The translations under genes and the position numbers were made by a program. Under the pieces are notes generated by a model that saw only the letters and a list, made by a program, of their open reading frames with translations, ran no database searches and was not told the DNA's origin. Below are positions 872 to 60,178 of a DNA stretch of 64,000 nt, piece by piece; positions within the stretch are counted from its first letter, which is position 1, and each line of letters begins with the position of its first letter. The DNA comes from a bacterium (GTDB lineage: Bacteria; Patescibacteriota; Dojkabacteria; GCA-016699595), in contig CP064982.1 in NCBI GenBank assembly GCA_016699595.1, positions 443,829 through 507,828 on the forward strand, read 5' to 3'.

Positions 872-1348
872 TTACCAAGCTAAATGTGCAAAAGCTTTAT
901 TTGCATCAGCCATTCTATGCATCTCATCTCTCTTCTTCATAGCACTACCTTCACCTTTGTATGCGTCATGAAGTTCTTGAGCCAAGGTTTCCCATGTTTC
1001 GTGTCTAGTATTATTCCTCTTGTCTCTAGCAGAATTTATGATCCATCTATAAGCTAGCGATTTACTTCTGTTTTCTCTCACAGGAGTCGGAACTTGATAT
1101 GTAGCACCACCAACCCTCCTAGACCTTACTTCTATATTCGGTCTTACACTGTTTATAGCTTTTTCAAAAGAAATTACTTGTCCTTCACCCGTGAATTCTG
1201 CAAGTTTATCTAGTGCCTTATATACCAAAATTCTTGCCACACTTTTTTCACCGTCATACATCACATAATTAATGAATTTTGATATGTCTACTGAATTGTA
1301 TTTGTAATCCGGTTCTATTTTTCTAACCGGAGCTTTTTTTCCTCTCAT
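872..1348 (-). CDS. rpsG: 30S ribosomal protein S7
   Basis: Full-length S7-like sequence (158 aa) with the conserved ...SVRPNIEVRSRRVGGATYQVP... and ...RDKRNN... blocks. It lies in an rpsL-rpsG arrangement. Confidence 0.95.
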   Translation of the reverse strand: MRGKKAPVRKIEPDYKYNSVDISKFINYVMYDGEKSVARILVYKALDKLAEFTGEGQVISFEKAINSVRPNIEVRSRRVGGATYQVPTPVRENRSKSLAYRWIINSARDKRNNTRHETWETLAQELHDAYKGEGSAMKKRDEMHRMADANKAFAHLAW

Positions 1349-1380
1349 AATTTTTATTTATCAATTTTAATAAAGTATAT

Positions 1381-1836
1381 TTAATCTTTTTTGACTTTAG
1401 GTCGTTTTGCACCATACTTTGATCTCTCTTGCTTTCTATTCGCAACTCCAGTTGCATCAAATTTTCCACGAACTATATGATATTTTACACCAGGAAGATC
1501 TTTGACTCTACCACCTCTGACCAAAACCACAGCATGTTCTTGCAAACTATGTCCTATACCTGGGATATAAGCAATAACTTCCTGCTTATTGGAAAGTCTA
1601 ACTTTGGCAATCTTACGAACAGCAGAGTTTGGTTTTTTGGGAGTTCTTGTTGTTACTGATATACAAACACCTCTTTTGAAAGGATTATTTGCTTTCGTAA
1701 ATTTTTGACTCTTCGAGTTATAGTTGAATTGCAATTGTTTGTACTTTGTTGTTTGAGAAAATTCTATCCCTTTGTACTTTGCACTTCCTCTCTTAAGTTT
1801 TCGTGGTTTTCTGAGTATTTGATTTATTCGTGACAT
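1381..1836 (-). CDS. rpsL: 30S ribosomal protein S12, carrying a ~27-aa N-terminal insertion
   Basis: Carries ...[59 protein letters not shown].... It is 151 aa versus about 124 aa typical. The extra segment sits between the KRGSAKYKG block and PFKRGVC. Confidence 0.95.
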
Positions 1837-1852
1837 ATATTATTTATAATTA

Positions 1853-4800
1853 TTACCATACATTGCTACCTAGAGGTACAACCCTACCGATTATAACATT
1901 CTCCTTAAGACCTTTCAAGTGATCTACAGAACCAACCAAAGCTGAATCCGAAAGAACACGCACTTGCTCTTGGAAAGATGCTGCTGACAAGAATGATTCG
2001 GACTTCACTGCAACTTGTGATATACCTAAAAGCTGCCTTGTATACTTGATAGGATCTTTACCTTCTGATTTTAATTTCTCATTTTCGTCCCTTATAGTAT
2101 TGTATGATTCAAATTCACCAGGTATGAAAAATGAATCACCAGCATCAACTATTTTTACTAAGCCTCCCATTTTTCTTACCACTATTTCTACATGCTTATC
2201 ATCAATTGCGATACCTTGAACTCCATATACCTCTTGAATATTGTCTATCAAGTATTGCTCAGCCTTTTGCAAATCACCAAAGTTTAGTAAGTCAGGTGGA
2301 TAGATTGAGCCCTCTGATAATTGTTGACCCTGGACTACACTGTCACCATCCTTCACTCTCAAAATAACTTTCTTATCCAATTTGTATTCTACCTCATTAT
2401 TTTTAGTACCAGTGAAATACATTACTCCATCTTTTTTACTGACTTCCCCATTTGTTGGCGCAGCCATTTTCGTTCCATCTTTCTTGATAATCAATACTTC
2501 TGCCTTTTTCACTTTCTTAGACCTAGAAAATTGAACTTCATCATCGTCTTGAATTTTGTATTCTTTATTAATTTCCTCGGTATTTTCAATTCTCAATTTA
2601 TATATACCAGAAACATCATCTTCCAAAATTTTTACAGTCCCAGATATCTCGGCTATAAGTGCTTTCATTTTTGGCACTCTACATTCAAATAATTCTTGTA
2701 AACGAGGAATACCTTGAGTGATATCCTTCGTTCCAGCCTTCGCTCCTGTATGTTTTGAGTCGATAGTCAATTGAGTGGTTGATTCTCCCATAGCTTGTCC
2801 AGCTATGATACCAACTGCAACACCCTTTTCAACTAATTTTCTAGTTCCAAGATTTGCTCCATAACATTTTGTGCATAGACCGTCTTTGGCTTCACATGTC
2901 AAAACTGATCTAACTTTTACCTTGTCAAATTTTTCTGCAATTAACTTTGATAATTCTTCATTGATAATTTCACCAGAATTCAATATCACCTTATCATCTA
3001 AAATGATGTCCTCAGCTACTACCCGACCAGATATCCTTCTTTCAAAACTCAATCGACGATTTACATCTTTGTATATATATATACCTTTCTTAGTTCCACA
3101 ATCGTCAATTCTAGTTATCATATCTTGTGATACATCGCACAATTTTCTAGTAATATATCCAGATATTGGAGTTTTCAACTTTTTGTCAGCTTCTCCTTTT
3201 CTAGTACCTCTAGAAGATGCAAAATATTCAAAGGTTGTAAAGCCTTTTACATAGTTTGACCTTAGTGGCAATGGCACAATACTTCCATGAAGGTCTAGGA
3301 TCAAACCTTTCATAGATGCAGACGATTTGAGCGGTTCGGTTATGGCAATAGCACCAGATTTATTTATCAGAGTAATCGGATTGGTTTGATCATACAACTT
3401 TAGTGTCATTTCTGCTAAATTATCGTTCACTTCTGTCCACAGTTGAGCTGATAATCTAAGTTTTTCACTAGCAGATACTAGACCATTGTCCAAAAGTTTG
3501 TTCAAAGCATCTTCTCTTTTGTTTGCTTCTGCAATTATCTCTTCTCTATTCGGAGCTTGCTTATAGTCGGAAATAGATATAGATACGCCAGAATTTGTCA
3601 ACCATTTGAATCCAAGTTTTTGGATCTTATCGATTGTTTCGAGAGCTACATTTGCACCATATTTTGAATAAATGTCAGAAACAACATCAGAAATCAACCC
3701 TTTGTTAGCTTGTTTATTTATGAATTCATATTCTTGAGGCAAAGATTCATTGAATAGTATCCGACCCGCAGTTGTTTCTACCAAGTCTCCTTTATAATTG
3801 AGCTTTACCTTCGCGTTTGATGTTATTTGATTTAAATCCAACATCTTCATAAGTTCAAGATAATCTGAAACTACCACAACATTATCTGTATCAGCATCTC
3901 GAGTCAGGTAATAATTGCCTGCAATCATATCTTTGTCAGCAAAAATAATTGGAGATCCATCTCTCATCAAAAGAACATTTGAATCAGGCATCATTTTTGC
4001 AATAGCTTCATCAACTGCAGCTTTTGATAAAGGCACATGAACAGACATTTGATCACCGTCAAAGTCAGCATTAAATCCTTTGCAAACTACTGGAGGTATT
4101 TGTATAGCATTACCAGAAATAAGAACTGGGTAAAATGCTTGAATTCCTTGTTTGTGCAATGTAGGAGCTCTATTTAACAATACAGGCCTACCTTGAATGA
4201 CTTCCTCCAGTATTTCATATACTTCTGCATTTTTTTCGTCAATATAAGTTTTTCCTGATTTGGCATTAGCCACAATACCTCGAGCTATAAGCTCTCTAAT
4301 TATAAATGGTTTGAATAACTCTAAAGCCATATCTTGAGGTAATCCACATTGGTTCACATAGAGTTCTGGACCTCCAACAATAACAGCTCTAGCAGAGTAA
4401 TCAACCCTTTTTCCAAGTAGATTTTGTCGAAATCTACCAGTTTTTCCTCTCAACATATCCGAGAGAGATTTGTATGGCTGTTGTCTAGTATTTAGAACGG
4501 GATTTCCGACTCTATGGTTGTTGTCAAGAAGAGCATCTACTGATTCTTGAAGCATTCTTTTCTCATTACGGATAATGATTTCAGGAGCTCCAAGGTCAAT
4601 CAACTTTTTCAATCTATTATTTCTATTTATCACTCTTCTATATAGATCATTCAGATCTGATGTAGCAAATCTTCCTCCCTGTAATTGAACTATTGGTCTA
4701 AGTTCTGGTGGAATCACGGGAAGGTGCTCCATCACAAGCCACTCAGGATTTAAGTTCGAATCTTTCATTCCTTTCAAAATCCTATATCTATCTACCAATT

Positions 4801-10174: not shown

Positions 10175-11122
10175 CTATTTCTTCCTATTTTGGAATAATT
10201 TTTCGATTATACTACCAATATTCTGAATTGTCCAGAATATACTAAGGCCAGATGGGAAAAACTGTGCACCACCTAGAAACCCAAGTGAAGTTACTGTTGT
10301 CAGAACTGAAAACATTATATTCATCTGTCCACCAAATATATTTGCCATATTCTCTGGAGATACCGCTTCTGGTTTCGTTGAGTCCAATTCCACCGCAGAC
10401 AAATTTTTCTTTCCATCTTTGTTTTTTTCCTTCTTTGCAATACTAACTATTTCGGCATCTTCAATACCGAGCTTCTGATCTTTGGCTAAATCGGCAGAAT
10501 TTTGAACAGAGAGTTTCATTAGCCAAAATTGAGTTGCACCTACCAGCAAAGCCAAAAGCAAGTATGGTAAAATTTGAATAGTGAATAAACTTTCGATACC
10601 ACCACCCATGAAGTCTCTGGCAGTTTTACCTATATCCAAACCAAGAAACATAGGATTTACAGTATCATAGTCTCCATGCTGTAATTTATCAGTATAAGCT
10701 ACCTTATTGAAATTTTTCCAACCAATATTTCTCTCGACAGTTTGATTATTTTCATTTATGACTTCTGTAGCTGAAAAATCAACAATCACATGCCTTAGCT
10801 GAACGAACATCAATATCAGAATTATAGTAAATGCACAGCCCTTACCTACAGATTTCATAACAGCAGGTTGATACTTCATCATCTCAGAAGCAAGTTTATC
10901 TGGATCATCTTTATATTTCTTTTGAATTTCATTAATTTTATCCATTTGCTCTTTGTTTCCTGTTGCCATCTTGTTTTGAAAACTAGTGATTGGGGAAGTT
11001 ACAAGTTTGAAAACTATTGAAAGCGCGATTATTGCCAATCCTAAGTTACTACCCAGTGTATTGTAAAGTATCACTAAAACATTGAAAAGTGGTTGATATA
11101 TAAGTGTGTGTAATATGTCCAT
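10175..11122 (-). CDS. yidC: membrane protein insertase, YidC/Oxa1 family (short form)
   Basis: Multi-TM protein. The segment LGLAIIALSIVFKLVTSPITSFQNKMATGNKEQMDKINEIQKKYKDDPDKLASEMMKYQ parallels the YidC core (TM2 followed by the KYK-DP helical hairpin). Confidence 0.7.
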   Translation of the reverse strand: MDILHTLIYQPLFNVLVILYNTLGSNLGLAIIALSIVFKLVTSPITSFQNKMATGNKEQMDKINEIQKKYKDDPDKLASEMMKYQPAVMKSVGKGCAFTIILILMFVQLRHVIVDFSATEVINENNQTVERNIGWKNFNKVAYTDKLQHGDYDTVNPMFLGLDIGKTARDFMGGGIESLFTIQILPYLLLALLVGATQFWLMKLSVQNSADLAKDQKLGIEDAEIVSIAKKEKNKDGKKNLSAVELDSTKPEAVSPENMANIFGGQMNIMFSVLTTVTSLGFLGGAQFFPSGLSIFWTIQNIGSIIEKLFQNRKK

Positions 11123-11469
11123 ATCTATATTCGTTTCAATTTAAATGAATAACTATATATAACTACTTAGCACTTCACTACATTATAAATGAAGTTTGAT
11201 AAGGTAATAATTTGTACATTACATGAATTAATATAATTAGTAACAGTAAAAATAGTTTACCACGAGTTATAAACAGAAAATGATTTTAACATTATTTGTC
11301 ATAAATTCTATCAAAATATAAAGAGAATTCAAAAATTGTGTTATAATTCTTCTCGAGCTTATATTGGGGTACCTAAGGTTGTACTATATAAAACAGCAAC
11401 AAACAAGGCAATAGTGTAGTACTTTTCAAATTGTTTAACTAACCAAAAATAGGCAGAAGAAGATTTATT

Positions 11470-11919
11470 GGGCGCGAAAGGATTTCGACAGAAGTACTGA
11501 TCCAAAAATCTCATGCAGTGTTTTACCATTATTGACACTTCAAAATAAATTTGGTAGTGATTTTCACTAGCATACATAAATGCAAACATCAAAACACAAT
11601 TTGCTCAATTTGCAAAAAATGTAAAAAGTGCCCTATATTATAGTGGCTTACTAAATTTTGCATAATAATTGAGCGAAGAAATGCCATGCATTTCCATAGA
11701 ATTAATTCCTTGATGGTGGAGAATTGATCTATGTTTCAAAAACACCATATGTAATATCTCTGTTTTTTATATGCTCAGAGGTACAAAACTATGAAGCATA
11801 TACTATTTGAAATACTTTTATAGATTGACATTCAAATAGAAACTAAATCTATAAAAGCATGTTATAAAGATTTAGGAAACGACTTTTGGAAGCGAGTTCG
11901 AATCTCGCCGCGTCCACCA
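11470..11919 (+). ncRNA. ssrA: transfer-messenger RNA (tmRNA, ssrA), not present in the ORF track
   Basis: The 3' end ggaagcgagttcgaatctcgccgcgtccacca aligns position-by-position with the E. coli tmRNA 3' end (GGACGCGGGUUCAACUCCCGCCAGCUCCACCA): T-arm, acceptor strand and encoded CCA. The 5' end gggcgcgaaaggatttcgacag pairs with that 3' strand across 7 bp, including a G3:U70 wobble, and contains the conserved GGAUUCGAC-like motif. An internal reading frame (11582-11668) ends in TAA TAA. Confidence 0.6.
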
Positions 11920-11964: not shown

Positions 11965-12195
11965 ATGTCAACAGATCAAATTCTAAACTACTTAATCATT
12001 GCGATTTCGGTAATCTTGTCCATTTCTATTCTTCTACAAGCAAGAGGTTCAGGACTTGGTAGTATGTTTGGGGGAGGAAGTGGTGGAGGTGAAATGTACA
12101 GGTCTAGAAGAGGACTTGAAAAGTTCTTGTATTATTTGACAGTGATTTCTGCAATCATTCTTGTTGCTTTGTGCGTAGCATCTCTAGTTATATAG
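11965..12195 (+). CDS. secG: preprotein translocase subunit SecG
   Basis: 76 aa with two TM helices and the Gly-rich SecG loop (LLQARGSGLGSMFGGGSGGG). Confidence 0.75.
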   Translation: MSTDQILNYLIIAISVILSISILLQARGSGLGSMFGGGSGGGEMYRSRRGLEKFLYYLTVISAIILVALCVASLVI

Positions 12196-39097: not shown

Positions 39098-41002
39098 ATG
39101 AACGAAACCAACCCACAAGAACAAAATAATTTTCCCTTTGATAATGCAGCAAATATAAACAATCAAAATCAAAGCAGTGCCGATAAATCACAGGTTAATA
39201 AACCCAGAATTTTTCGTAAATTATCAGGCATGAATTTGATAATAATAGGCATATTGGCGTTTTTATTATTAAGTAGTTTGATATCTTCAATAAGTTCAAA
39301 AATCGAAGAATCCAAGCAAATTGATTTTCAAAAGATAAGTACTGAGATCAAAAATGGCAATGTAAAAAGTATAGAGTACTGCAACAAAAATCTTACCGTA
39401 AGACTTAACGATGACAAGGAACTAAAAACCAACATATCTGTAAATCCAGTTAGTCTATTTTTTGATCAACAATCAGAGCTAAAGATAGATTCAACAAAAA
39501 TTAGCTATAAAGAATGCACTCAAGGGATACCAGCAGAAGACATAATTGGTTATGGCATTCAAGGGTTACTCTTACTTGGTATGGGTGTATTGATATGGAA
39601 GTTATTGAAAAGCATGAATGATCAAGGTTCAAAGATTTTTGGATTTGGTGAGAGCAAAGCAAAGATATCTATAGGCAAAAAGCAAGACATTACACTTGCA
39701 GATGTTGCTGGCATTGAAGAAGCAAAGGAAGAATTGAATGAAATTGTACTATTTCTGAAAGATCCGAAAAGATTCCAAGATATGGGAGCAAGAATTCCAA
39801 AAGGTATCTTGATGGTAGGAGCGCCCGGAACTGGTAAAACACTTTTAGCTAGAGCAATTGCAGGTGAAGCTGGAGTTCCATTTTTTGCAACTTCAGGTTC
39901 AGAGTTTGAGGAAATGCTTGTTGGAGCAGGAGCATCTAGAGTTAGAGATTTGTTTGACAAAGCAAAGAAACTGCAACCAAGTCTAATTTTTATAGATGAA
40001 ATAGATGCAGTGGGAAAAAGAAGAGGAACAAATATAAATTCAAATGCAACCGAGCAAACATTAAATCAAATTTTAGTTGAAATGGATGGCTTTGAGAAGA
40101 ATCAAAATGTAATCGTCATCGCAGCAACAAATAGACCTGATGTACTTGATCCTGCACTACTTCGACCTGGAAGATTTGATAGAAAACTAACTTTAGATTT
40201 GCCAGATCAAGAAGGAAGAACAAAAATTCTCGAAATACATGCAAAAAACAAACCACTTGCAGCTGATGTTGATCTAAGCAAAATTGCAAAAAGAACGATA
40301 GGTTTTACTGGTGCTGATCTTGAAAATACTTTGAATGAATCTGCAATTGCTGCTGCCAAGGCAGGTAAAAAAGTTATTGACACTCACGACATTGAAGAAG
40401 CTACATTGAAAGTTGTTATGGGTTCAGCAAGAAAACGAAGGAGAACTCAAAAAGAATTAAACATTGTTGCTTATCATGAAGCAGGACATGCTGTAGTTAC
40501 GAAATTTGTTCCTGAGGCCGATCCAATTCACAAGATAACTATAGTAAGTCGTGGAATGAGTGGAGGTATGACCATGCACATGCCTGAAGATGATGAAACA
40601 ATGACAAGCAGGACGAAAATTTTGTCTGAAATCAAAGTTCTGCTTTCTGGACAAATTGCTGAAAAACATTTTATGGGTGATATCACAACCGGAGCAAGCA
40701 ACGATATTGAGAGAGCTACAAAGTTGGCTCGTGGAATGGTGAAGAAGTTTGGTATGACGAAACTAGGCATGATAAATTATGGACTTGATGAGGAAGATTC
40801 TGGAACTTACTTCCCAACGAAAGATTATTCAGAAGCAACTGCTAGCGAGATTGATGTTGAGGTAAATAGGATAATTGAGGACTGTTATAAAGAAGCAGAA
40901 AAGATCATATTGGAAAATAAAGATAGACTTGAAAACTTGAAAAATGCTTTGTTGGAAAGAGAGATCATAAATGCAGAAGAATTTGAGGAAATTATGAAGT
41001 AA
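39098..41002 (+). CDS. ftsH: ATP-dependent zinc metalloprotease FtsH
   Basis: Has N-terminal TMs, the AAA module GAPGTGKTLLARAIAGEAGVPFF, the SRH and the HEAGHA zinc site. Confidence 0.95.
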   Translation: MNETNPQEQNNFPFDNAANINNQNQSSADKSQVNKPRIFRKLSGMNLIIIGILAFLLLSSLISSISSKIEESKQIDFQKISTEIKNGNVKSIEYCNKNLTVRLNDDKELKTNISVNPVSLFFDQQSELKIDSTKISYKECTQGIPAEDIIGYGIQGLLLLGMGVLIWKLLKSMNDQGSKIFGFGESKAKISIGKKQDITLADVAGIEEAKEELNEIVLFLKDPKRFQDMGARIPKGILMVGAPGTGKTLLARAIAGEAGVPFFATSGSEFEEMLVGAGASRVRDLFDKAKKLQPSLIFIDEIDAVGKRRGTNINSNATEQTLNQILVEMDGFEKNQNVIVIAATNRPDVLDPALLRPGRFDRKLTLDLPDQEGRTKILEIHAKNKPLAADVDLSKIAKRTIGFTGADLENTLNESAIAAAKAGKKVIDTHDIEEATLKVVMGSARKRRRTQKELNIVAYHEAGHAVVTKFVPEADPIHKITIVSRGMSGGMTMHMPEDDETMTSRTKILSEIKVLLSGQIAEKHFMGDITTGASNDIERATKLARGMVKKFGMTKLGMINYGLDEEDSGTYFPTKDYSEATASEIDVEVNRIIEDCYKEAEKIILENKDRLENLKNALLEREIINAEEFEEIMK

Positions 41003-41823: not shown

Positions 41824-44067
41824 GTGAATATTGCCCAATTCCTAGATCCAAAAAGTATAGCTATTTATGGAGTTTCCGAAGATCCCAAAAAAGTAGGTTC
41901 ACAAATATACTTCAATATAATTCACAATAACTTCAAAGGTCAAGTTTTCCCTATAAATCCGAACTATGATAGTGTTCATAATGTAAAATGTTATAAAAAT
42001 ATAATAGAACTAGCCTCCCTGACAAGGGAGGGTGTCACGGAAAGCGTGACGGGTGGGTTAAAAATTGATCTTGCAATTATTGTTACACCTTCTCAAACAA
42101 TTCCACAAATACTTGAAGAAATTGGTCAAACTCAGACCAAAAATGTAGTTATCATCTCAGCCGGTTTCAAAGAAATTGGAAAAGCTGGAATAGAACTGGA
42201 AAATAAAGTTTTGGAACTAGCAAGTAAATATGGATTAAATATTTTAGGACCAAATTGTTTAGGTTTTATAAATAACATTTCAAACTTGAATGCAACTTTT
42301 TCTTCAATTCAACCAAGACTAGGTAATGTTGCCTTTGTTTCACAATCTGGTGCAGTTGGAACTAGTTTTATGGATGTTTGCGAAGAGCGAGGTTTAGGTT
42401 TGAGTTATTTTGTTTCACTTGGAAATAAAGTTGGGATAAATGAAAATAACTTACTAGAATTTCTTTTGCGGGATCAAAAAACTGAAGTTATTGCATTTTA
42501 TCTAGAAGATTTTGAAAAAGGTTTAGACTTTATACAAATTATTGAAAATTATTCGCGTAATGGTAAACTTATCAAACCAATAGTGCTAATTCACCCCGGA
42601 AGTTCAGAACAGGCAAAATCTGCAGTTAGTTCGCATACTGGCTCTCTTGCTAAACCTTGGGACATTATAGAAACTGCACTTCAGAAATATGGAGTTATAA
42701 CCATTTCAAATATTGAAAGTTTTATAAATGTCATAACTCTTTTGAGTTGGAATTTAAATAATTTCTTAAGTTTTGAAAATAAATCACAAAACATTGATAA
42801 TGTTGCAAACAAGAAATCCCTAAACTTTACAGTTTTGACTAATGCTGGAGGTCCGGGAATTATTTTGACTGACCTACTTTCACATAATGGATTTAATTTA
42901 GATAAATTGAGTGATAAAACTTTGTCTAAATTGAATAATTCTGAAGTTCTGAAGAACAAAGGCTGTTCTTTTGCAAATCCAATTGATATAGTTGGTGATG
43001 CCAAAGTTGATAGATACAAAGAAAGTTTGGAAATAATTTTGAATGATCAAGGAATCAAGAATGTAATAATAATTCTAACTCCACAAAGTTCTACTGAAAT
43101 AAAAGAAACTGCAGAATTAATTATAAATTTGAAAAGTAAATTTAAAAGTAAGTTAATAATCCCACTTTTTGCAGGTGGCATTCATATCAAGCAAGCTCGA
43201 GATGAATTTTATAAAAATAGAATTATGAATTTCAAATATGACGATGATTTGATAGATACTTTGATTGCATTGAAAAACTGGGGTAATAATAAGTATATTT
43301 TGAATGTTCCAAATTTAGCTTCAGAAGCAAATTTGAATACTGTAAAACTTACAGAAGGGATTTTATCAGAATCTGAAGTTTTGAAACTTTGTGAAGATTA
43401 CAAAATCTCAATACCTAAGACCTTTTTGTTTGATAATGTTGATAAATTGAATGTGTCAATAGATCAAGTAGATTTCCCAGTTATTCTGAAAGCTACTTCA
43501 AAAGATGTACTTCATAAAACTGAAAATAAATTAGTTGAAATTGCTACAAATCGAATTGAGTTACAAAGTAAGTTTGTTGAAATGCAAAACAAAATTCAAA
43601 AAATTAAACTTTTAGACGAAAAAAATTCAGGTAATTTAGTTATAAATTTTGATAATTATTATCCTGATATTTTGATACAAAAAATGCTGCCAAAAAGTCT
43701 GGAGTTATTTGTTGGAGTGAAGCGAGATGGTGACAGTGAAGTATATCAAAGTAAATTTGGATTTGGACATATGTTGATTTTTGGGACTGGTGGAATATAT
43801 ACAGAAATTTACAATGATTTATCTAAAGTAATATTACCAATTGATCTGCTTGAAATTGAAACAATGATAAATAAAACTAAAGTTGGAAAAGTTTTGAATG
43901 GAGCTAGAGGAAAAGTCTTTGCAAAAGAAAAGTTGATAAATTTACTTTTGCATTTACAAAATTTGGTTTTCGATCATCCAGAAATTTCTGAAGTTGATAT
44001 AAACCCAATCATGATCTCTGAAAATTATGCTCAAGTTGTCGATATGAAAGTCATTGTTAAAAATTAG
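41824..44067 (+). CDS. acetyl-CoA synthetase (ADP-forming), fused alpha/beta domains (NDP-forming acyl-CoA synthetase)
   Basis: Has an N-terminal CoA-binding/succinyl-CoA-synthetase-like region (IAIYGVSEDPKKVGSQIY...VFPINP...DLAIIVTP...GPNCLGFIN) plus a C-terminal ATP-grasp region. It carries a 15-aa in-frame GC-rich insertion. Confidence 0.8.
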   Translation: MNIAQFLDPKSIAIYGVSEDPKKVGSQIYFNIIHNNFKGQVFPINPNYDSVHNVKCYKNIIELASLTREGVTESVTGGLKIDLAIIVTPSQTIPQILEEIGQTQTKNVVIISAGFKEIGKAGIELENKVLELASKYGLNILGPNCLGFINNISNLNATFSSIQPRLGNVAFVSQSGAVGTSFMDVCEERGLGLSYFVSLGNKVGINENNLLEFLLRDQKTEVIAFYLEDFEKGLDFIQIIENYSRNGKLIKPIVLIHPGSSEQAKSAVSSHTGSLAKPWDIIETALQKYGVITISNIESFINVITLLSWNLNNFLSFENKSQNIDNVANKKSLNFTVLTNAGGPGIILTDLLSHNGFNLDKLSDKTLSKLNNSEVLKNKGCSFANPIDIVGDAKVDRYKESLEIILNDQGIKNVIIILTPQSSTEIKETAELIINLKSKFKSKLIIPLFAGGIHIKQARDEFYKNRIMNFKYDDDLIDTLIALKNWGNNKYILNVPNLASEANLNTVKLTEGILSESEVLKLCEDYKISIPKTFLFDNVDKLNVSIDQVDFPVILKATSKDVLHKTENKLVEIATNRIELQSKFVEMQNKIQKIKLLDEKNSGNLVINFDNYYPDILIQKMLPKSLELFVGVKRDGDSEVYQSKFGFGHMLIFGTGGIYTEIYNDLSKVILPIDLLEIETMINKTKVGKVLNGARGKVFAKEKLINLLLHLQNLVFDHPEISEVDINPIMISENYAQVVDMKVIVKN
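42014..42050 (+). repeat. two adjacent perfect GC-rich hairpins (cctccct-gaca-agggagg and gtcacg-gaaag-cgtgac) embedded in-frame in the acetyl-CoA synthetase gene
   Basis: Direct inspection shows 7-bp and 6-bp perfect inverted repeats separated by 2 nt, in a ~60% GC patch inside a ~30% GC gene. They encode LTREGVTESVTGG, which is absent from typical ACD CoA-binding domains. Confidence 0.5.
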
Positions 44068-44073
44068 AATAAT

Positions 44074-45855
44074 ATGTCACAAACTACTCTAAAAATTCAC
44101 GGTCAATCTGGACAAGGAATTGAAACTCTTGGAATGATTTTGGCAAATTCTCTTCTGAAAAGTGGTTATTTTGTTTTTACACATAGAGAATACCCAAGTC
44201 TGATCAAGGGAGGCAATGCCAATTTTCAAATTGAGTTTGGAGATAAAGAAATCACTTCACCTCATGACAAGGTAAATATTTCCTTAGTTCTAAATAAACT
44301 TCAAACATTGTGGAAGCTTGATGAACTTGCAAAAAATGCTATTTTAATAACCGATGTTTCAACTCAAAAATTAACTGAAGCTGAAAATCAAATTATCAAA
44401 AATAAAAATGTAAATCAAATTTATATAAATACAGAACAAATTATAGCTGAAGCTCAAGCTGAAATTATTATGAAAAATATAGTTTTACTTGGGACTATAG
44501 CTCAAATAATTGGACTTGATCTAGAAGTAGTAAAAGATGTAATTTCAACTGAACTTGGTAATCACTCAGAAAAACTTGAGATGAATTTCAAATTACTTGA
44601 ACTTGGGTTTAATTATAATTTGGAAAACAAATTCAATTTTCCAACCTTAAAATTAAATGATAAAGTCGAAAATAATTCTAATAAAGCTTTGATGACAGGA
44701 CATGAAGCTTTATGTTTAGGTGCAATTTCAGCTGGTTTAAAGTTTTTCTTTGGTTACCCTATGACTCCAGCTTCAAATATTTTGAAATACTTGACTGAGA
44801 ATGCGAAAAAGTTTGATATATATGCTCGTCAAGTCGAAGATGAAATATCAGCAATAACGATGAGTTTAGGTTCATCATTAGGAGGAGTTAGGTCAATGAC
44901 TGCAACTTCTGGTGGTGGATATGATCTGATGACTGAGCAAATTTCATATGCTGGAATTTCTGAAACTCCAATTGTTGTAGTTTTAGGTCAAAGACCCGGA
45001 CCATCAACAGGTATGCCAACTTGGACTGCGCAAGGTGATCTGAATTTAGCAATTTACGGAGGACATGGAGAATTTCCGAAACTTGTTATGTCGCTTTCAG
45101 ATCCTTACACAGCTCACGAGCAAATTCAAAATGCTTTTAATTTTGCCGACAAGTATCAACTTCCTGTTATAGTTTTAACTGATAAATTTCTTGCTGAAAG
45201 TAATTTCACTGTAGATCCAACAAAATTCAAACAAATTGCAATTGATAGAAACTTAATAAGTTTGGATGATGTTACTTCCTTGGAGAAGCTACCGGAAGAG
45301 GAGAAAAGGTTTAGCGAAAAAAGATATGAATTTACTGCTTCTGGAATTTCTCCAAGATGGCTTCCTGGAACTTCAAGTTTTGACTATGATATCAATAGTG
45401 ATGAACATGATGAGTTTGGGAATGTAACTGAAGATGCAGACATAGCAAGTAGGATGTATGAAAAAAGAATGCGAAAATTGGTGAGCTTGAAACAAGAATT
45501 ACCTGAACCTGAGATTTTCACAAATCAAACTTTTGATGCACAAACAAATTTGGACAATTTGCAAAGTTATATATCATGGGGTTCAACGAAGTGCAATTTG
45601 CAAACTCATTTACAAAATTTAGATGACAAGAATATTCCAGCTCAATTTTTACACTTTGAGTATTTATGGCCACTCAAGACTGAAAAATTAATTAGGTTTC
45701 TAAATAAATATAAGGATGCAATAGTTGTTGAAAATAACTACGAAGGACAATTCGCAAATTTGATCCAAAAAGAAACTGGAATAATGATTGTTAATAGAAT
45801 TAATAATTGGAATGGTAGAAATATAAACTTCAATCAAAATGTCAAAGATCAGTGA
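44074..45855 (+). CDS. 2-oxoacid:ferredoxin oxidoreductase, fused gamma-alpha subunit
   Basis: Has the N-terminal gamma-domain pattern (KIHGQSGQGIETLGMILANSLLKSGYFVF) followed by the alpha domain (...GHEALCLGAISAGLKFFFGYPMTPASNI...). Confidence 0.85.
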   Translation: MSQTTLKIHGQSGQGIETLGMILANSLLKSGYFVFTHREYPSLIKGGNANFQIEFGDKEITSPHDKVNISLVLNKLQTLWKLDELAKNAILITDVSTQKLTEAENQIIKNKNVNQIYINTEQIIAEAQAEIIMKNIVLLGTIAQIIGLDLEVVKDVISTELGNHSEKLEMNFKLLELGFNYNLENKFNFPTLKLNDKVENNSNKALMTGHEALCLGAISAGLKFFFGYPMTPASNILKYLTENAKKFDIYARQVEDEISAITMSLGSSLGGVRSMTATSGGGYDLMTEQISYAGISETPIVVVLGQRPGPSTGMPTWTAQGDLNLAIYGGHGEFPKLVMSLSDPYTAHEQIQNAFNFADKYQLPVIVLTDKFLAESNFTVDPTKFKQIAIDRNLISLDDVTSLEKLPEEEKRFSEKRYEFTASGISPRWLPGTSSFDYDINSDEHDEFGNVTEDADIASRMYEKRMRKLVSLKQELPEPEIFTNQTFDAQTNLDNLQSYISWGSTKCNLQTHLQNLDDKNIPAQFLHFEYLWPLKTEKLIRFLNKYKDAIVVENNYEGQFANLIQKETGIMIVNRINNWNGRNINFNQNVKDQ

Positions 45856-46615
45856 TTATTATTCAAAAAACTTACCTACTTGGTGTGGAGGTTGTGGGAA
45901 TTATGGCATAATGTCAGCTGTTAAACTTGCACTAGTTGATTTGCAAATTGAATCTAAAGACTTATGCTATTGTTTTGATATTGGCTGCAATGGAAACATG
46001 AGCGACAAGATCAAAGGTTATAGATTTCATGGACTTCATGGACGAGTTTTGCCACTTGCAACAGGTTTGAAACTGTCTCAACCAAATTTGACAGTTCTAG
46101 CTTCAGGTGGAGACGGAGGAACTTATTCTGAAGGCATAAATCATTTTATACATTCTATCCGACATAATTATCCAATCACATTTTTAGTTCACGATAATCA
46201 TGATTATGGTCTGACAACCGGTCAATGTTCTGCAACTAGTCCAGATGGATTTAAGATGAATAGTAGTCCGGAAGGTCAACTTGGAGAAGTATTGAATCCT
46301 CTGAAACTTGCTATGTCAGTGAATGCAACATTTGTTGCTCAAACTAGTTCAAGTAATATCGAACAAATGAGAAAAGTTATCAAACTTGGAATTGAGCATC
46401 AGCATAAGAATAATGGTTTTGCATTTATAAACATCATTCAAGCATGTCCAACTTACAACAAGTATGGAATGGAAGAATTTATAAAAGGTAATTTATTTGA
46501 TGTAGATGAAGGAAATTCTAATGGTATAATTCATAATCCTAATGATTATCAAAGTGCGATTGATATAGTTGAAAAATACAGATACCCACTTGGCCTAATT
46601 TATCAAAGAATGTAG
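45839..46615 (+). CDS. 2-oxoacid:ferredoxin oxidoreductase beta subunit (TPP-binding)
   Basis: Has WCGGCGNYGIM ... GGDGG... thiamine-diphosphate-binding motifs. It overlaps the upstream alpha gene by 17 nt. Confidence 0.85.
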   Translation: MSKISDYYSKNLPTWCGGCGNYGIMSAVKLALVDLQIESKDLCYCFDIGCNGNMSDKIKGYRFHGLHGRVLPLATGLKLSQPNLTVLASGGDGGTYSEGINHFIHSIRHNYPITFLVHDNHDYGLTTGQCSATSPDGFKMNSSPEGQLGEVLNPLKLAMSVNATFVAQTSSSNIEQMRKVIKLGIEHQHKNNGFAFINIIQACPTYNKYGMEEFIKGNLFDVDEGNSNGIIHNPNDYQSAIDIVEKYRYPLGLIYQRM

Positions 46616-47347: not shown

Positions 47348-49723
47348 CTACATTCTTCCTCTTCCCTGTATCTCTTGATCAACTGCATTTCTATCCCTTC
47401 CATACCTGAGTCTTGACAACTCTTTGATATTTCTAAATGTCCTTTCATTGACTGGGTACTCTGTTCCAGCTATTATTGTTGGCTTTACTGAATCATAGAA
47501 TGTGCTCATTGAAAATGGCGGAGGATATTCACCGTTTACGAGAAGTTTGATATAAGCATTGAAGTTTTCTAAGTTTATCAAGTCGTTCTGTGAAAATATA
47601 GGTGCGAATTCATTTTGCAAATAACTTGCATCTTCAACTCCAACTTTGAATGACAGCATAGTACCAACATTACCAAATACAGCATGTTTGATTTTCTCAT
47701 CAATTTGGGCTATATATTGATTCCCTATAATCAGATTTAATCTATATTTTCTTGCTTCAGACAATATTTGGGCAAATTCTTCAGAAGCAAAATTTTGAAA
47801 CTCATCAACATAAAGATAAAAATCCTTTCTGTCACTTTCATTCATATCAGCTCTACTCATAGCAGCAGACAATATCTTTGGAATCAATAACAATCCCAAA
47901 AATTGTGCATTTTCTTCACCAACTAAACCTTTTGATAAATTTACAATTAAAATTTTCTGTTCATCCATTACTTTTCTAAAGTCAAACGAAGATACTGATT
48001 GACCGAGTATATTTCTCATCATCCTATTCGTGATAAATCTATCAAACTTAGAAATAATGTAACCTAAAACTTCAGATTTATGAAATTCATTTGTTTGAGC
48101 AATTTCTTTTTCCCAATACTCTCTAACTAGCGGATCTTGAATATATGGCAAGTACATTTTTTTCAAAAATTGATAGTCATATAAAATTCTTGCAACTTCA
48201 ACCAATGTACCTCCAGGTCTTGACATAACTGTAAGTAATGCATTTCGAACTGATCTTTCAAGTCTAGGTCCAACTATACCTTGCTTGTTTGGGTCAAACA
48301 TTTTGTAAAGCAAACCGATAAATGAATTTGCAACACGATGTTTATCATCTTCAGAGTAAGCTTCTACGATATTGAATGCTAATGGTCTCTCAACATCAGC
48401 TGGATTGAAATAAATGACATCTTCAGCCCTCTCAGATGGAATTCTTTCAAGTACCCATTCTGCAGCATCTCCATGAGGATCGAGATACGCAATGCCGTGC
48501 CCCTGTTTGATATCTTGAATAATCATTGATTGCATAGCATATGATTTCCCAGCTCCAGTTTTTCCAACCATGTACATATGCCTCCTTCTATCATCAGGTG
48601 CAATCCAAACTTGTTTTTTTGAACCTCGAAAAATTGAATTTCCAAGCCAAACACCTGGTGGTCCAGAAGGCACCTCTTCTGATGCAGGTGCTCTTTTACT
48701 TAACAGCCAATGTATATAAGGTGTTTGCACATTCTTGTTTGGAAAGTGAAATACTGTTGCTAGTTCTTCAGTATTTAGAGTAGTTGTTTGTCTTGGATTT
48801 CTATAAATAAAATCTTCTTCAAATTGTTTTTTTTGCTTTTCGTTTTTAAATTTAACCTTTTTGAATCTATTGGAACCTTGAAGTTCCATAGGATCAAACG
48901 AGGCAAGTACATTTTCTACATGCATTTTTGCGACTTCAATAGTTTTTGAAGCTGCTACAACCCTGATATCTACCAAGAAACCTACTTTTAGAGTTTTCTT
49001 CTCAACGCTACCTACTGATTCATCATCTCTAGGTTTTGACTTCTTTCCCTCTTCGGAACTGCCTGAATCTCGTACAGATTTGATAAATGATCTCCCTGCC
49101 TTTCGCCATTTTTTACTAGCTGGGGTTATCAAAATTTGCACTGCAACACCTTCACCTTCATTCATCCGACTCATAGCAGTTGTTACAGCTGACATAGTAT
49201 CCACATGCAATTCAGAAAATACCTTTATAGGTTTATACGAAACTTCAGCAAGCTTCAAGCCTGCATATTCAACCACTGAATCTTCATGAAATATATTGTA
49301 TTCATCTACTTCTTTCACATCTGCCTCCTGGTAGCTTGCATGTATTTGTTTTTCAACCAGTTGGGAAATTTTTTTGGGAACTATGACATAAAATCTTATA
49401 GACTCAGGAAGTCCCACTATCTCAAAAGAAACATAGTTTGGAGTTTTGAATAATTTTTCGTGCCACTTCGTAGGAACGGACGAAATAGATGTAAGTGCAG
49501 CAAACATCTGTTCTGCAGCGTGTACATCAACATCATTCGCTTTTGGTAACCTAACTTCATAACAAACACTATTCAAAGCTCTTTTCAATTGTTGTTCTTC
49601 TCTTCGTCTTCGTGCAAACATCATAAATAATCCTATCCCAATAGCTACAAGCAAAGTAAGTAATATCAATAAAACTAAGTATAATATGGCAGATGAATTT
49701 GAAGTTGATGATACTGTTGTCAT
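47348..49723 (-). CDS. membrane-anchored P-loop ATPase of the TraD/VirD4 (T4CP)/FtsK-HerA superfamily
   Basis: Has one N-terminal TM and a ~350-aa linker. Walker A is MYMVGKTGAGKSYAM, followed by YLDPHGDAAE (the DPxG[DE] block typical of T4CP/FtsK). A ~245-aa insertion precedes Walker B LYVDEFQNF (the spacing is T4CP-like, consistent with an all-alpha domain), and an Arg-rich C-terminus follows. A VirB4-like alternative is not excluded. Confidence 0.6.
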   Translation of the reverse strand: MTTVSSTSNSSAILYLVLLILLTLLVAIGIGLFMMFARRRREEQQLKRALNSVCYEVRLPKANDVDVHAAEQMFAALTSISSVPTKWHEKLFKTPNYVSFEIVGLPESIRFYVIVPKKISQLVEKQIHASYQEADVKEVDEYNIFHEDSVVEYAGLKLAEVSYKPIKVFSELHVDTMSAVTTAMSRMNEGEGVAVQILITPASKKWRKAGRSFIKSVRDSGSSEEGKKSKPRDDESVGSVEKKTLKVGFLVDIRVVAASKTIEVAKMHVENVLASFDPMELQGSNRFKKVKFKNEKQKKQFEEDFIYRNPRQTTTLNTEELATVFHFPNKNVQTPYIHWLLSKRAPASEEVPSGPPGVWLGNSIFRGSKKQVWIAPDDRRRHMYMVGKTGAGKSYAMQSMIIQDIKQGHGIAYLDPHGDAAEWVLERIPSERAEDVIYFNPADVERPLAFNIVEAYSEDDKHRVANSFIGLLYKMFDPNKQGIVGPRLERSVRNALLTVMSRPGGTLVEVARILYDYQFLKKMYLPYIQDPLVREYWEKEIAQTNEFHKSEVLGYIISKFDRFITNRMMRNILGQSVSSFDFRKVMDEQKILIVNLSKGLVGEENAQFLGLLLIPKILSAAMSRADMNESDRKDFYLYVDEFQNFASEEFAQILSEARKYRLNLIIGNQYIAQIDEKIKHAVFGNVGTMLSFKVGVEDASYLQNEFAPIFSQNDLINLENFNAYIKLLVNGEYPPPFSMSTFYDSVKPTIIAGTEYPVNERTFRNIKELSRLRYGRDRNAVDQEIQGRGRM

Positions 49724-50127: not shown

Positions 50128-52632
50128 TTATAAATTTATCTCTTTCACAATTATCTCTATATTAGCAAAATTTGTTGGAAGTTTCTGCAAAAACTTTGGA
50201 AGAAACTTTGGTTGGATGGTTGCTGAAACTATCTGCATTTTGTCATTTGACAAAGTCATAACTTCGCTCTGACTCTTACCCGATATAGATTTTTTTAGTT
50301 CAAGTGACGAAAACTCTGGTAAGGTTGAGGCGTTTATATGCAAAGAGAATATTATATTGTCAGCATTTACCCTGATATTATCGAATGAATAGTCAAACCT
50401 TTCAGTAATTTCCTGAGTATACTCTGAGACTCCATTACCCGTCAATTCTTTCTTTTTAACTTGGTATAGTTCTTTTGCTTTTGCCTCTATTGTCCCCTTA
50501 TCCAGTCCCTTAACTATCCCTTTGATTGTCACAGTAGCTGAAACTTCCTCTGCTTGTGCCCCAATTTGTGTAGAATATTCTTCTTTAACTATAGTATATT
50601 CCGGTTCTTGAGAAAGAAGAATAAAGCTATCTTTTGTCTTTGTTGTCAATTCACTTTTGATTTCTTCTTTAAGTTTATTCGATAGCTTTGAATTTAATTC
50701 ATCTTTTTCTTTTTGCGAAAAAATTAAGACCATATTTGTCTTCCCACCTGCTATATTGTTTGAAAAATTTGCAACAAGTTCGTCTGCGCTATAGTTAGCA
50801 ACTTTGCCTGTAGTATAAGTTGTACCAGTTATATTGTAATCCTCTCCAGATACAGTAGCAGTTATTGGTATCTGTGCTAGTAAACCATACACTGTGCCAG
50901 TGATTTGCTGAGTAGCATTAGGAACTACTCCACCTTTTGAAGCCTCATATTCAAGTGTCTTACCTCCTGCAGTTATAATTACTTTATAATTTTGTGGTAA
51001 AGTTATAGGGTTCGGTGTTTTATTGTATATATTGATAAATCCAGTAGCTTTAGAACCATTATCAACTTTGTTTGTAATTGTAACATTGTCAGAAGATGTT
51101 TTCTCAATCTCAACAGGTACAATGGCTAGACCTCCATTTTGATCTGTAGTCTTAGCTTCAATATCTTGAATAATCTCAATTTTGATAGGTTTCGGTTCAA
51201 TAGTAACTTGAGCTGTTCTAAGAGAATAAATCAACAAAACCAAAATAGGGAACAGAAGAATAATCGGCATCAAAATCATTATCTTTTTACCACGGAACAG
51301 CCCATCTGCTTTACCAAAAAAGTCAAGTATACTTTTCTGTAAATTCTGCAGAACAAACTTAAGTTTAGGAAATAATACGTCCATTAATCTCTTACCTAGA
51401 TATTTATTTGATTGAATTGAACGACTAGTTTTCTCTCCCTTGATACCTTTCATGTACACTCTATCATTAAATATACTAGCTCGTTTTTTCTTTATAGAAA
51501 CACCTTTTGCAATATTTACCTCTAGAGCTTTAGCTCTACCCTTTACCTCGTGGGGAAACTTTACCTTGCTTAAAAAATGTTTTAGAGAGTTTCTCTCAAC
51601 TTTAGAATATATTGGACCTATCTCTTGATCTACTGAATCTAAATTAGGGTTAACCCAATTTATTTCGCTTTGATTATTTATGTCATTAATTATATCTTCT
51701 GAAGGATTTTTTTTTTGGAGAATTGAAGCTTCCTCTATGCCATCTTCAATAATTTTACCTGAGACTTCATCGAATTCAGCAACATCACCACCAGCAACTA
51801 AAATGAAATTCTCATCTATAATCAGTTTTCCTCTTCGTAATTTTGGTGCTGTGTTTGGGGTGGTCTCACTGTCTTTCTGAGCTTTATAAGTATTGTACAA
51901 TTCCTCAAATGTAGGTTGCTTTTGTACTTCATCTTCTAATGATTCCTCAACAGTACTAATTAGAATACTTTCATCACTATTTACAGTTTTTATTGAGTTT
52001 CTAGCACTTTCAGATGAAGTATCTTCGAGAGTTTCAGGTTTGTCGTCATTTTGATTTTCAATTAGTAAGTTCAAAGTATTTTCTTCGTAATCAACTTTTG
52101 CATCAGCATCTTTAAGATTCTCTAGATAATCTTCATCTTTACTAGCGCTGATTAAACTTTCTTCGAGATTATCTTGAGAAATGTCTACACTCTCATTAGG
52201 ATCAACGTCAAAAATTTCAGTTTTTTCTGATTCTACAATGGCAGCATTTTGACTTGCAATTTGCCTTAAAGATAATAACTTCCTTTTCGTGTTATCCATT
52301 CTTCGAGTAAAACTTTCTTTCAAATCATCTGCTATTTGCCACTTTTGACTATCAGCCTGCCCAGAATCTTGTATTACTACCAAACTCACCTGCTTTCCTA
52401 GTTTTTCAGCTTCTTTGTCTTTTGTTTGAATTATGACAATTTTGTTTAGCCTTAGAATTTCCTTTGCAAGGATTCTCAAACTTACAATATTTGTAAATAC
52501 CTCTGAACCACTTGGAACAACTAGCAGAACTTTTTCACTACTAGTCTCCAGTATACTTTCAATGATAAAAGTCATCTCATCATCTACATCTAGAAAAATT
52601 TTTGTTATGTTTTGATTAGAAATCTTTGACAC
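50128..52632 (-). CDS. hypothetical 834-aa bitopic membrane protein (acidic cytoplasmic N-domain, central TM, Thr/Gly/Asn-rich extracytoplasmic C-domain)
   Basis: Has a single strong TM (KIMILMPIILLFPILVLLIYSL at ~aa 455-478). The N-terminal 90 aa look like an alpha/beta module (KVLLVVPSGSEV...). No recognisable enzyme motif. It lies immediately downstream of the FtsA homologue. Confidence 0.5.
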   Translation of the reverse strand: MSKISNQNITKIFLDVDDEMTFIIESILETSSEKVLLVVPSGSEVFTNIVSLRILAKEILRLNKIVIIQTKDKEAEKLGKQVSLVVIQDSGQADSQKWQIADDLKESFTRRMDNTKRKLLSLRQIASQNAAIVESEKTEIFDVDPNESVDISQDNLEESLISASKDEDYLENLKDADAKVDYEENTLNLLIENQNDDKPETLEDTSSESARNSIKTVNSDESILISTVEESLEDEVQKQPTFEELYNTYKAQKDSETTPNTAPKLRRGKLIIDENFILVAGGDVAEFDEVSGKIIEDGIEEASILQKKNPSEDIINDINNQSEINWVNPNLDSVDQEIGPIYSKVERNSLKHFLSKVKFPHEVKGRAKALEVNIAKGVSIKKKRASIFNDRVYMKGIKGEKTSRSIQSNKYLGKRLMDVLFPKLKFVLQNLQKSILDFFGKADGLFRGKKIMILMPIILLFPILVLLIYSLRTAQVTIEPKPIKIEIIQDIEAKTTDQNGGLAIVPVEIEKTSSDNVTITNKVDNGSKATGFINIYNKTPNPITLPQNYKVIITAGGKTLEYEASKGGVVPNATQQITGTVYGLLAQIPITATVSGEDYNITGTTYTTGKVANYSADELVANFSNNIAGGKTNMVLIFSQKEKDELNSKLSNKLKEEIKSELTTKTKDSFILLSQEPEYTIVKEEYSTQIGAQAEEVSATVTIKGIVKGLDKGTIEAKAKELYQVKKKELTGNGVSEYTQEITERFDYSFDNIRVNADNIIFSLHINASTLPEFSSLELKKSISGKSQSEVMTLSNDKMQIVSATIQPKFLPKFLQKLPTNFANIEIIVKEINL

Positions 52633-53899: not shown

Positions 53900-54505
53900 T
53901 TATTTATTTACAACTGAATTCAAAGCATTTTGTTTTGCTTGTTCATAAAGTTCATTACCAATTATTTTCAAAGACTGTCGTATCATTACTTTATCTTTAT
54001 CACTTGCAATATTTTTATCTGTAGAATTTAAATAAGTGTTTGGAAAACTAAATTCTTTGATCTTCTGTGGATTTTTTTTGACATCAAATGTATTTGTTCC
54101 TAAGTATTCTGCATAAAATAAAGTATTTGAAAATGAACTTCCATTTACTTTTGGATTGTCTTTTTTATAACCATAACAACTAGCTATATAATAGTACTTT
54201 TCCAATCCTTTCATTGCTGCAGATTCATCAATACTGTAATCTATAACTCTCAAAGCACAACTATATTTGTCAGTTAACTCATTTGTTTTCAAATAATAAT
54301 TTTCTAAAGTATATTTCAACATTTCTATAGTTTGTGAATCAACTTGAGATCCTGAAACGTTGGAATTATAAAGTTTATATAGGTTTTTTGAATTTACTAA
54401 TGATGCATTAAATCCTAAACTTGTTACCAAAAAGAAAACATTACAACAACAAGATAATATTAGCAATACAGTTAAAATTATTATTAAAATACTTTTAGTG
54501 TTCAT
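53900..54505 (-). CDS. hypothetical bitopic membrane protein, CCC-motif family member 3
   Basis: Has an N-terminal TM with LILSCCCNVFF and a ~170-aa extracytoplasmic domain. It is directly upstream of ftsA on the same strand. Confidence 0.45.
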   Translation of the reverse strand: MNTKSILIIILTVLLILSCCCNVFFLVTSLGFNASLVNSKNLYKLYNSNVSGSQVDSQTIEMLKYTLENYYLKTNELTDKYSCALRVIDYSIDESAAMKGLEKYYYIASCYGYKKDNPKVNGSSFSNTLFYAEYLGTNTFDVKKNPQKIKEFSFPNTYLNSTDKNIASDKDKVMIRQSLKIIGNELYEQAKQNALNSVVNK

Positions 54506-59734: not shown

Positions 59735-60178
59735 TTAATTTTTGTTTATACTTGTCGTTGAGGAAGATTCTCCAACTCCCATAAATATTGAATTATTACA
59801 ATTTGCATCACAATATACTCTCTTATAATTTTTTGGTAATTCATAATTATTATCAAGTAGCCAACCGTCAAGTTTCAGTATAATGTCAGATTCAGAAAGA
59901 TACAATGAATTGACAAATACAATCTTCTGACTATCATCAATTAAAATACTCATATCTTCATCATTATATATATTTTTTAGATCAGGCAAATCATCTATGC
60001 TAACTGTACTAGTAATTGAATTCGTCATATTAGAACCATTATTTGTTACCTTTTTATTTCTTGATACTAATAAGTTTATAGTAATTAACAAAGCACATAG
60101 GATAATTGCAAAAACAAATATCAAAATAGAATACTTCTTTGAGTTTTGAATTGAATTATTTGATAAATTTGTAGACAT
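59735..60178 (-). CDS. hypothetical membrane-anchored protein
   Basis: 147 aa with an N-terminal TM. It abuts the start of gapN. Confidence 0.35.
   Translation of the reverse strand: MSTNLSNNSIQNSKKYSILIFVFAIILCALLITINLLVSRNKKVTNNGSNMTNSITSTVSIDDLPDLKNIYNDEDMSILIDDSQKIVFVNSLYLSESDIILKLDGWLLDNNYELPKNYKRVYCDANCNNSIFMGVGESSSTTSINKN

Follow-up and report, generated by a model that had tools for sequence, protein, structure and literature searches.

A one-piece tmRNA with a long, basic tag ending in -FA in a small-genome bacterium related to the Dojkabacteria

Positions 11470-11919 of the DNA analysed here raise three questions: whether the RNA encoded there is a working transfer-messenger RNA (tmRNA, the product of ssrA), which peptide tag it encodes, and which protease would recognise the proteins that carry this tag. 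The DNA in question, hereafter the window, is a stretch of 64,000 nucleotides of contig CP064982.1 (assembly GCA_016699595.1). It amounts to about 8% of this 761,814-bp contig, and the gene-content results given below cover its larger open reading frames (ORFs). Nearly all bacteria are expected to carry a tmRNA, and a reading of the bare sequence (the sequence-only reading) had placed an unannotated one at this site. The locus is very probably the functional ssrA, in one-piece form, of a small-genome, low-GC bacterium related to the Dojkabacteria of the candidate phyla radiation (CPR). It is an ordinary tmRNA, and its one unusual feature is a long basic tag ending in -FA, which is common to its relatives.

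ARAGORN reports a one-piece tmRNA of 450 nt on the forward strand at 11470-11919, with the 3' CCA encoded, as the sole tmRNA in the window. A cmscan search of Rfam returns RF00023 at coordinates identical to those of ARAGORN, with a score of 63.2 bits (gathering score 47; E = 2.4e-22). The match covers the model from end to end (positions 1-374) and is unbeaten by other tmRNA-type families in clan competition. Both programs, which the sequence-only reading had named as its tests, thus call the tmRNA at their default settings and fix its exact coordinates. The minimum-free-energy fold of the RNA has a z-score of -6.8 against shuffles and recovers the acceptor stem, T-arm and helix 2.

Related tmRNAs were compared with that of the window. 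Those used most are the following, with the identity of the neighbouring YidC protein given as a measure of distance:

L081 and L087 (Logan): YidC 98% identical to that of the window; tag ANIKTRFAQFAKNVENALNNYSALLNFA, followed by two stops.
L082 (GCA_040364335.1), 1086-1529, reverse strand: YidC 58% identical to that of the window; tag ANIKSQVAQFVRNVKASFSNVALMFA, followed by one stop.
L091 (Ca. Dojkabacteria, JGI Ga0226835_1000090), 3772-4232, forward strand: tmRNA of 461 nt; tag VNQIKNTVANAVAGVKAAFAPSYALAFA, followed by one stop.

In L081, L087 and L082 the order YidC, tmRNA, SecG is the same as in the window. The tmRNA of L091 lies upstream of YidC-L25 on the strand of YidC, and the same genes as in L091 are found in L092 and GCA_030834985.1. 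This RNA scores 50.2 bits with RF00023 (gathering score 47) and is missed by ARAGORN; its tag frame was assigned by alignment to the window tmRNA. The tmRNAs of this Dojkabacteria-like clade are at the edge of standard detection.

All canonical tmRNA elements were placed by comparing the window with L082. Along the RNA they are:

11470-11476, forward strand: acceptor stem, 5' strand GGGCGCG; 7 of 7 pairs form with 11909-11915, and the C:G pair at C6 is U:A in L082.
11489-11516, forward strand: helix 2, 5' strand (segments 2a-2d), pairing with 11857-11888.
11517-11556, forward strand: pseudoknot 1; 11517-11522 pairs with 11534-11539 (stem 1) and 11524-11528 with 11552-11556 (stem 2).
11555-11569, forward strand: extra hairpin UAGUGA-UUU-UCACUA between pseudoknot 1 and the resume codon; two pairs are double-changed in L082.
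11577-11578, forward strand: U(-5) A(-4), within the CAUAAAU that precedes GCA; the equivalent of E. coli U85-A86.
11582-11662, forward strand: tag reading frame of 27 codons, ANIKTQFAQFAKNVKSALYYSGLLNFA, given by ARAGORN, the Rfam alignment and the homologous tags.
11663-11668, forward strand: tandem stops TAA TAA; a single TAA in L082 and L091.
11678-11694, forward strand: hairpin 3' of the stop codons, at the position of helix 5; 7 of 7 pairs in the window and 7 of 7 in L082, with a different sequence.
11695-11748, forward strand: pseudoknot 2; 11695-11708 pairs with 11721-11733 (stem 1) and 11713-11718 with 11743-11748 (stem 2).
11756-11802, forward strand: pseudoknot 3; 11756-11762 pairs with 11776-11782 (stem 1) and 11768-11775 with 11795-11802 (stem 2).
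11803-11853, forward strand: pseudoknot 4; 11803-11811 pairs with 11831-11839 (stem 1) and 11819-11826 with 11846-11853 (stem 2).
11857-11888, forward strand: helix 2, 3' strand, the partner of 11489-11516.
11892-11908, forward strand: T-arm GCGAG-UUCGAAU-CUCGC with a 7-nt T-loop, identical in the window, L081 and L082.
11909-11919, forward strand: acceptor stem, 3' strand CGCGUCC, discriminator A73 and CCA; the CCA is not encoded in L082.

The two ends of the RNA close as had been predicted from the sequence, GGGCGCG pairing with CGCGUCC ahead of A73 and CCA, and the stem includes G3:U70, which is the alanine identity pair. However, the accompanying claim that the 3' end follows E. coli almost base for base was overstated, since about three in four of the final 32 nt agree with the Rfam consensus. 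The T-arm and a D-loop-like GG..UUCGAC element, GGAUUUCGAC, align to the RF00023 consensus. Helix 2 consists of 20 pairs in four segments, all of them paired in the window and one of them double-changed (both bases differing between sequences with pairing kept), and segments 2c and 2d show complete pairing in three of three sequences.

All eight pseudoknot stems form both in the window and in L082. In pseudoknot 1 a G:C pair of stem 1 is replaced by A:U, and in pseudoknot 2 six pairs of stem 1 and two of stem 2 are double-changed. In pseudoknot 3 four pairs of stem 2 are double-changed, and in L082 stem 1 is formed by a different sequence. The stems of pseudoknot 4 comprise 9 and 8 bp in the window and 10 and 7 bp in L082, where the register is one column off. 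Pairing was counted in a three-sequence alignment (A1) over the acceptor stem, T-arm, helix 2, the four pseudoknots and the two extra hairpins. Standard pairs occupy 92.7% of cells, compared with 33-43% after the 3' partners are slid, and 23 pairs, mostly in pseudoknot stems, are double-changed and still paired, compared with 1-4 when the partners are slid. In a shuffle control the mean number of double-changed pairs was 7.7, and none of 500 shuffles reached 23. In this alignment certain helices of L082 stand one column off, and in their own register they form 6-10 bp.

The RNA is longer than usual, as had been remarked from the sequence (450 nt against the 374 positions of RF00023). Most of the excess is due to the tag with its 27 codons, and the remainder to the added hairpin and an enlarged pseudoknot 1 region. 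The hairpin at 11555-11569 explains part of an insertion that the Rfam alignment shows as 45 nt against 22 nt.

ARAGORN gives the window tag as ANIKTQFAQFAKNVKSALYYSGLLNFA followed by two stops and places the coding part at gene positions 113-199, or 11582-11668 of the window. This is the peptide proposed by the sequence-only reading, beginning at the same GCA resume codon (11582) and closed by the same double ochre stop. The resume region UGCAAAC is matched to the Rfam consensus UGCaAAC at maximal posterior probability, which agrees with that frame. Since the covariance-model match is significant and the alignment keeps the frame, neither of the outcomes that the sequence-only reading had named as telling against it, a lack of any tmRNA model hit or a resume codon placed elsewhere, was found.

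The comparison of tags in relatives, which had also been proposed, yields homologous frames in L081, L082 and L091. The window tag has 27 codons (28 residues with the Ala from charged tmRNA), five aromatic residues and 56% hydrophobic residues. Across the four tags (window, L081, L082 and L091) the length is 26-28 codons, the net charge +2 to +3 and the hydrophobic share 54-64%, with three to five aromatic residues in each. All four have in common N-IK, A, VK and a terminal L-x-FA, and their insertions and deletions are of whole codons only. The ends read -LNFA (window and L081), -LMFA (L082) and, in L091 only, -LAFA. Because homologous tags recur in the relatives with whole-codon indels, there is good support for the tag frame, and the tag characterises the clade and not just the genome of the window. 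U at -5 and A at -4 of the resume codon are present in all four RNAs; of the corresponding E. coli bases U85 and A86, A86 is the main frame-setting one (PMC2481249). The helical hydrophobic moment over 18 residues is 0.37-0.51 in these tags, a value that 3-6% of shuffles equal. The signal is weak, and the tags may form an amphipathic helix with net positive charge.

The tag frame also differs between close strains. Between the window and L081, which is a 98%-identical strain by its YidC, the 87-nt tag frame carries six substitutions, five of them nonsynonymous, together with a one-codon insertion. The remainder of the aligned region has 18 substitutions in 1934 nt, compared with 6 in 84 nt of the tag frame (Fisher p = 3e-4); within the tmRNA alone the figures are 6 in 84 for the frame and 3 in 363 outside it (p = 0.002). 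In this region the window and L081/L087 are about 99% identical. Rapid change in the mid-tag, or a recombined patch, could explain the cluster.

Several points weigh against reading the locus as a functional ssrA. The RF00023 score is modest and includes 27.4 bits of bias, and the L082 tmRNA, although called by ARAGORN, falls under the RF00023 gathering score. A consensus scan for promoters and terminators around the tmRNA gave nothing clear, with no site above background, and screening of the window's larger ORFs brought up no SmpB. Moreover, the comparative support comes from four tmRNA sequences only, drawn from three lineages. The modest score with its high bias, together with a 77-codon frame on the minus strand, would fit a decaying tmRNA, a tRNA-like fragment or a real gene on the opposite strand, but this is extremely improbable given the full-length match to the model, the helices kept by compensatory changes, the conserved tag frame, and the behaviour of the antisense ORF:

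11359-11592, reverse strand: antisense ORF of 77 aa, spurious, overlapping the 5' part of the tmRNA.

This ORF has no Pfam match, and its similarity to the L082 counterpart is limited to residues 14-41, corresponding to 11470-11553 of the window, and stops at the 5' end of the tmRNA. The ORF is spurious, as the sequence-only reading had judged, since its conservation belongs to the tmRNA and ends at the tmRNA boundary. Taken together, the RNA family, the complete secondary structure with its covariation, the reading frame and the tag conserved in relatives describe a tmRNA that is complete and selectively maintained, with a defined tag frame.

Compared with one-piece tmRNA as represented by RF00023 and E. 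coli SsrA, the window RNA has the same tRNA-like domain (G3:U70, A73, CCA and T-loop UUCGAAU), the same long helix 2, the same placing of pseudoknot 1 on the 5' side of the tag and of pseudoknots 2-4 on its 3' side, and the same U(-5)A(-4) before a GCA resume codon, and its tag likewise has a non-polar end. It differs in its length, in a tag of 27 codons against 10 in E. coli that is basic rather than acidic and ends in -NFA rather than -LAA, and in the added hairpin between pseudoknot 1 and the resume codon. The L091 tmRNA resembles that of the window in its homologous tag, xN(Q)IKxxxAxxxxxVK...L-x-FA, in its size (461 nt) and in its linkage to YidC-L25. Unlike the window tmRNA, which is divergent from YidC, it lies on the YidC strand, and it has the resume codon GUC, a 4-nt T-loop (AGGGG-AAAA-CCCCU) and a deletion of the D-loop-like GG.

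The sequence-only reading had likened the -NFA terminus to the tags of Mollicutes. Those tags end in -[YF]AFA, and that of the window in -LNFA. The two groups are alike in having a long tag, a reduced genome, hydrophobic and aromatic residues and an -FA end; however, judged by eye, the sequences do not look homologous, and the Lon homologue of the window has no protease domain. In Mycoplasma pneumoniae the tag is of 27 residues and enriched in hydrophobic and aromatic residues, and in this bacterium, which is without ClpXP, tagged proteins are degraded via Lon and not detectably via FtsH (PMC8403727).

Alanine charging, dependence on SmpB and tagging by the window tmRNA are taken here from what is known of the tmRNA family. 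On that basis, alanyl-tRNA synthetase would charge the mature RNA with alanine through G3:U70 and A73, and the charged tmRNA would enter, with SmpB, ribosomes stalled on broken mRNAs. The ribosome would then switch to the tmRNA frame at GCA (11582), placed by U(-5)A(-4), add Ala and ANIKTQFAQFAKNVKSALYYSGLLNFA to the truncated protein and terminate at UAA UAA, leaving a C-terminal tag of 28 residues. This long, basic and aromatic-rich tag with its non-polar end would mark the truncated protein for an AAA+ protease. The genes of the window that bear on which protease this may be are two:

39098-41002, forward strand: FtsH (Pfam Peptidase_M41 and AAA; NCBIfam FtsH_fam, 704.5 bits against a cut-off of 600).
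54551-55636, reverse strand: Lon-derived AAA+ ATPase of 361 aa (Pfam AAA and Lon_lid), with no N-terminal and no protease domain.

Both assignments bear out what had been proposed from the sequence, namely an FtsH and a Lon homologue without a protease domain. Of the ATP-dependent proteases found in the window FtsH alone is complete, and it is a candidate for degrading tagged proteins. The Lon-like ATPase matches residues ~250-580 of endopeptidase La models, below their cut-offs, and aligns to the ATPase module only of solved Lon structures, with Walker A and B motifs intact. Among its best 120 homologues listed (44-95% identity, 354-489 aa), several of which are named from Dojkabacteria or Patescibacteria, none has a Pfam match to the Lon protease domain. 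The protease-less Lon ATPase is thus a conserved family and not a truncation artefact. An ORF of 201 aa downstream of it was considered as a split-off Lon protease domain and rejected, having no match in Pfam, NCBIfam or the PDB; it starts with an N-terminal hydrophobic stretch and was read as a membrane protein. Within ~6 kb of the ATPase gene, both in the window and in each of the five homologue contexts compared (among L091-L097), there is a gene for an FtsA/PilM-like protein and one for a large protein (620-860 aa) that has no Pfam match; the window genes found with the ATPase are 53900-54505, 52658-53890 and 50128-52632, all on the reverse strand. This context gives no hint of a link to tmRNA, and in the Dojkabacteria contigs L096 and L097 there is no tmRNA within 10 kb of the ATPase gene.

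A first possibility, and one that can be entertained tentatively, is that the tag is an ordinary variant of the ClpXP or ClpAP degron, with -FA in place of -AA and the Clp genes located outside the window. ClpXP is the main route in E. coli (PMC8403727), and the tags compared here all end in Ala after non-polar residues, like canonical tags. The window, moreover, covers only about 8% of the genome, and the rest of it may hold genes for ClpXP or a full-length Lon. Neither ClpX nor ClpP was found among the window's larger ORFs screened, however, and the penultimate Phe and the length of the tag depart from the canonical -LAA.

It is rather unlikely that membrane-bound FtsH is the main reader, with the non-polar C-terminus acting as the degron and the basic, possibly amphipathic N-terminal two-thirds bringing tagged proteins to the membrane. 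FtsH is the sole complete AAA+ protease found in the window, and E. coli FtsH is reported, in work cited by PMC8403727, to degrade ssrA-tagged proteins; the positive charge of the tags and their hydrophobic moments are also in keeping with a role at the membrane. However, depletion of FtsH in M. pneumoniae left a tagged reporter unstabilised (PMC8403727), the hydrophobic-moment signal comes from four tags that are not independent, and other proteases may be encoded elsewhere in the genome.

Recognition as a Mollicutes-type degron, in which specificity has switched from ClpXP to Lon and Lon degrades the tagged proteins, is doubtful. The tag is as long as the 27-residue tag of M. pneumoniae, which is Lon-degraded in a ClpXP-less genome (PMC8403727), and the tags of this clade carry three to five aromatic residues and end in -FA, with -LAFA in the Dojkabacteria relative L091. 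Yet the sole Lon homologue of the window is without a protease domain and stands beside an ORF read as a membrane protein, its family, conserved and protease-less, is encoded near FtsA/PilM-like genes, and the likeness to Mollicute tags does not extend, by eye, beyond the terminal residues. The proposal of the sequence-only reading that such tags go to Lon and not to ClpXP consequently finds no support in the evidence tested and is best regarded as an analogy, not a finding. Similarly improbable is a broader scenario in which Dojkabacteria-like CPR bacteria remodelled the tag into a long, basic, possibly amphipathic -FA peptide after loss of the ClpXP route, in parallel to Mollicutes, so that tagged proteins go to FtsH or to the protease-less Lon-derived unfoldase, the middle of the tag being unusually fast-evolving.

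The immediate neighbours of the tmRNA gene are the following:

10175-11122, reverse strand: YidC (Pfam 60KD_IMP), divergent from the tmRNA; the same neighbour in L081, L082 and L091.
11965-12195, forward strand: SecG (Pfam SecG), 46 nt 3' of the tmRNA; the same neighbour in L081, L082 and L087.

A terminator scan showed no terminator-like site between the tmRNA and SecG. The tmRNA lies downstream of rpsL-rpsG-rpoC-rpoB-L25, in DNA of ~32% GC. By exact protein look-up the window SecG is QQR93255.1 and the Lon-like ATPase QQR93293.1; YidC QQR93254.1, from the same contig, is in the cluster of the 98%-identical YidC P0001, and a separate exact look-up of the window SecG and of the YidC variant P0011 matched no record. 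The nearest named homologues of both YidC and the Lon-like ATPase come from Candidatus Dojkabacteria (WS6), a candidate-phyla-radiation lineage, and gene order is held in common with Dojkabacteria contigs at two places, tmRNA-YidC-L25 and the Lon-like ATPase near an FtsA-like gene. At the 3' end of the L25 gene (10001-10053) the window and L081 differ at 12 of 53 nt, mostly three bases apart, and the adjoining DNA is ~99% identical; this diverged patch suggests mosaic recombination between strains.

Other searches for relatives returned little. A scan of genome contigs based on RpoB matched conserved motifs in many phyla and found no close relative among the 80 loci kept (Actinomycetota, Clostridia and others, at 38-50% identity). 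A pattern scan of metagenome contigs for the T-arm and acceptor was set aside, its two tmRNA matches being unrelated (one of 251 nt and one a 76-nt tRNA-like domain). Contigs with distant YidC homologues (L083, L084, L089 and L090) have the context rnpA-yidD-yidC-jag; L083 and L084 gave no tmRNA with ARAGORN, and in L089 and L090 the gene tables leave no gap adjoining YidC. A literature search on tmRNA tags or Clp and Lon content found nothing specific to CPR or Dojkabacteria.

Some further genes of the window are recorded here. A protein of 791 aa (47348-49723, reverse strand) has weak matches to TrwB_AAD_bind, the HerA central domain and TraG-D_C, which are domains of type IV secretion coupling proteins and unexpected in a genome of ~0.76 Mb. 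No Pfam match was obtained for the 1267-aa ORF at 60178-63981 or the 834-aa ORF at 50128-52632 (both reverse strand), and the latter has no NCBIfam match either. At 41824-46615 (forward strand) an ADP-forming acyl-CoA synthetase-like protein (CoA_binding, Succ_CoA_lig and ATP-grasp_5) is followed by two subunits of a 2-oxoacid:ferredoxin oxidoreductase, a cluster that, from its domains, looks like a fermentative ATP-yielding module.

The locus thus provides a little-studied lineage with a correctly delimited tmRNA whose tag frame has been confirmed against relatives. Since the L082 tmRNA falls below the Rfam cut-off and that of L091 is missed by ARAGORN, a clade-specific model would improve annotation. 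That -FA tags are tied to reduced protease sets in Dojkabacteria-like bacteria is a modest but testable idea: if these genomes lack both ClpXP and a full-length Lon, their tags would be a second natural case, after the Mollicutes, of a tmRNA tag co-evolving with a reduced set of proteases.

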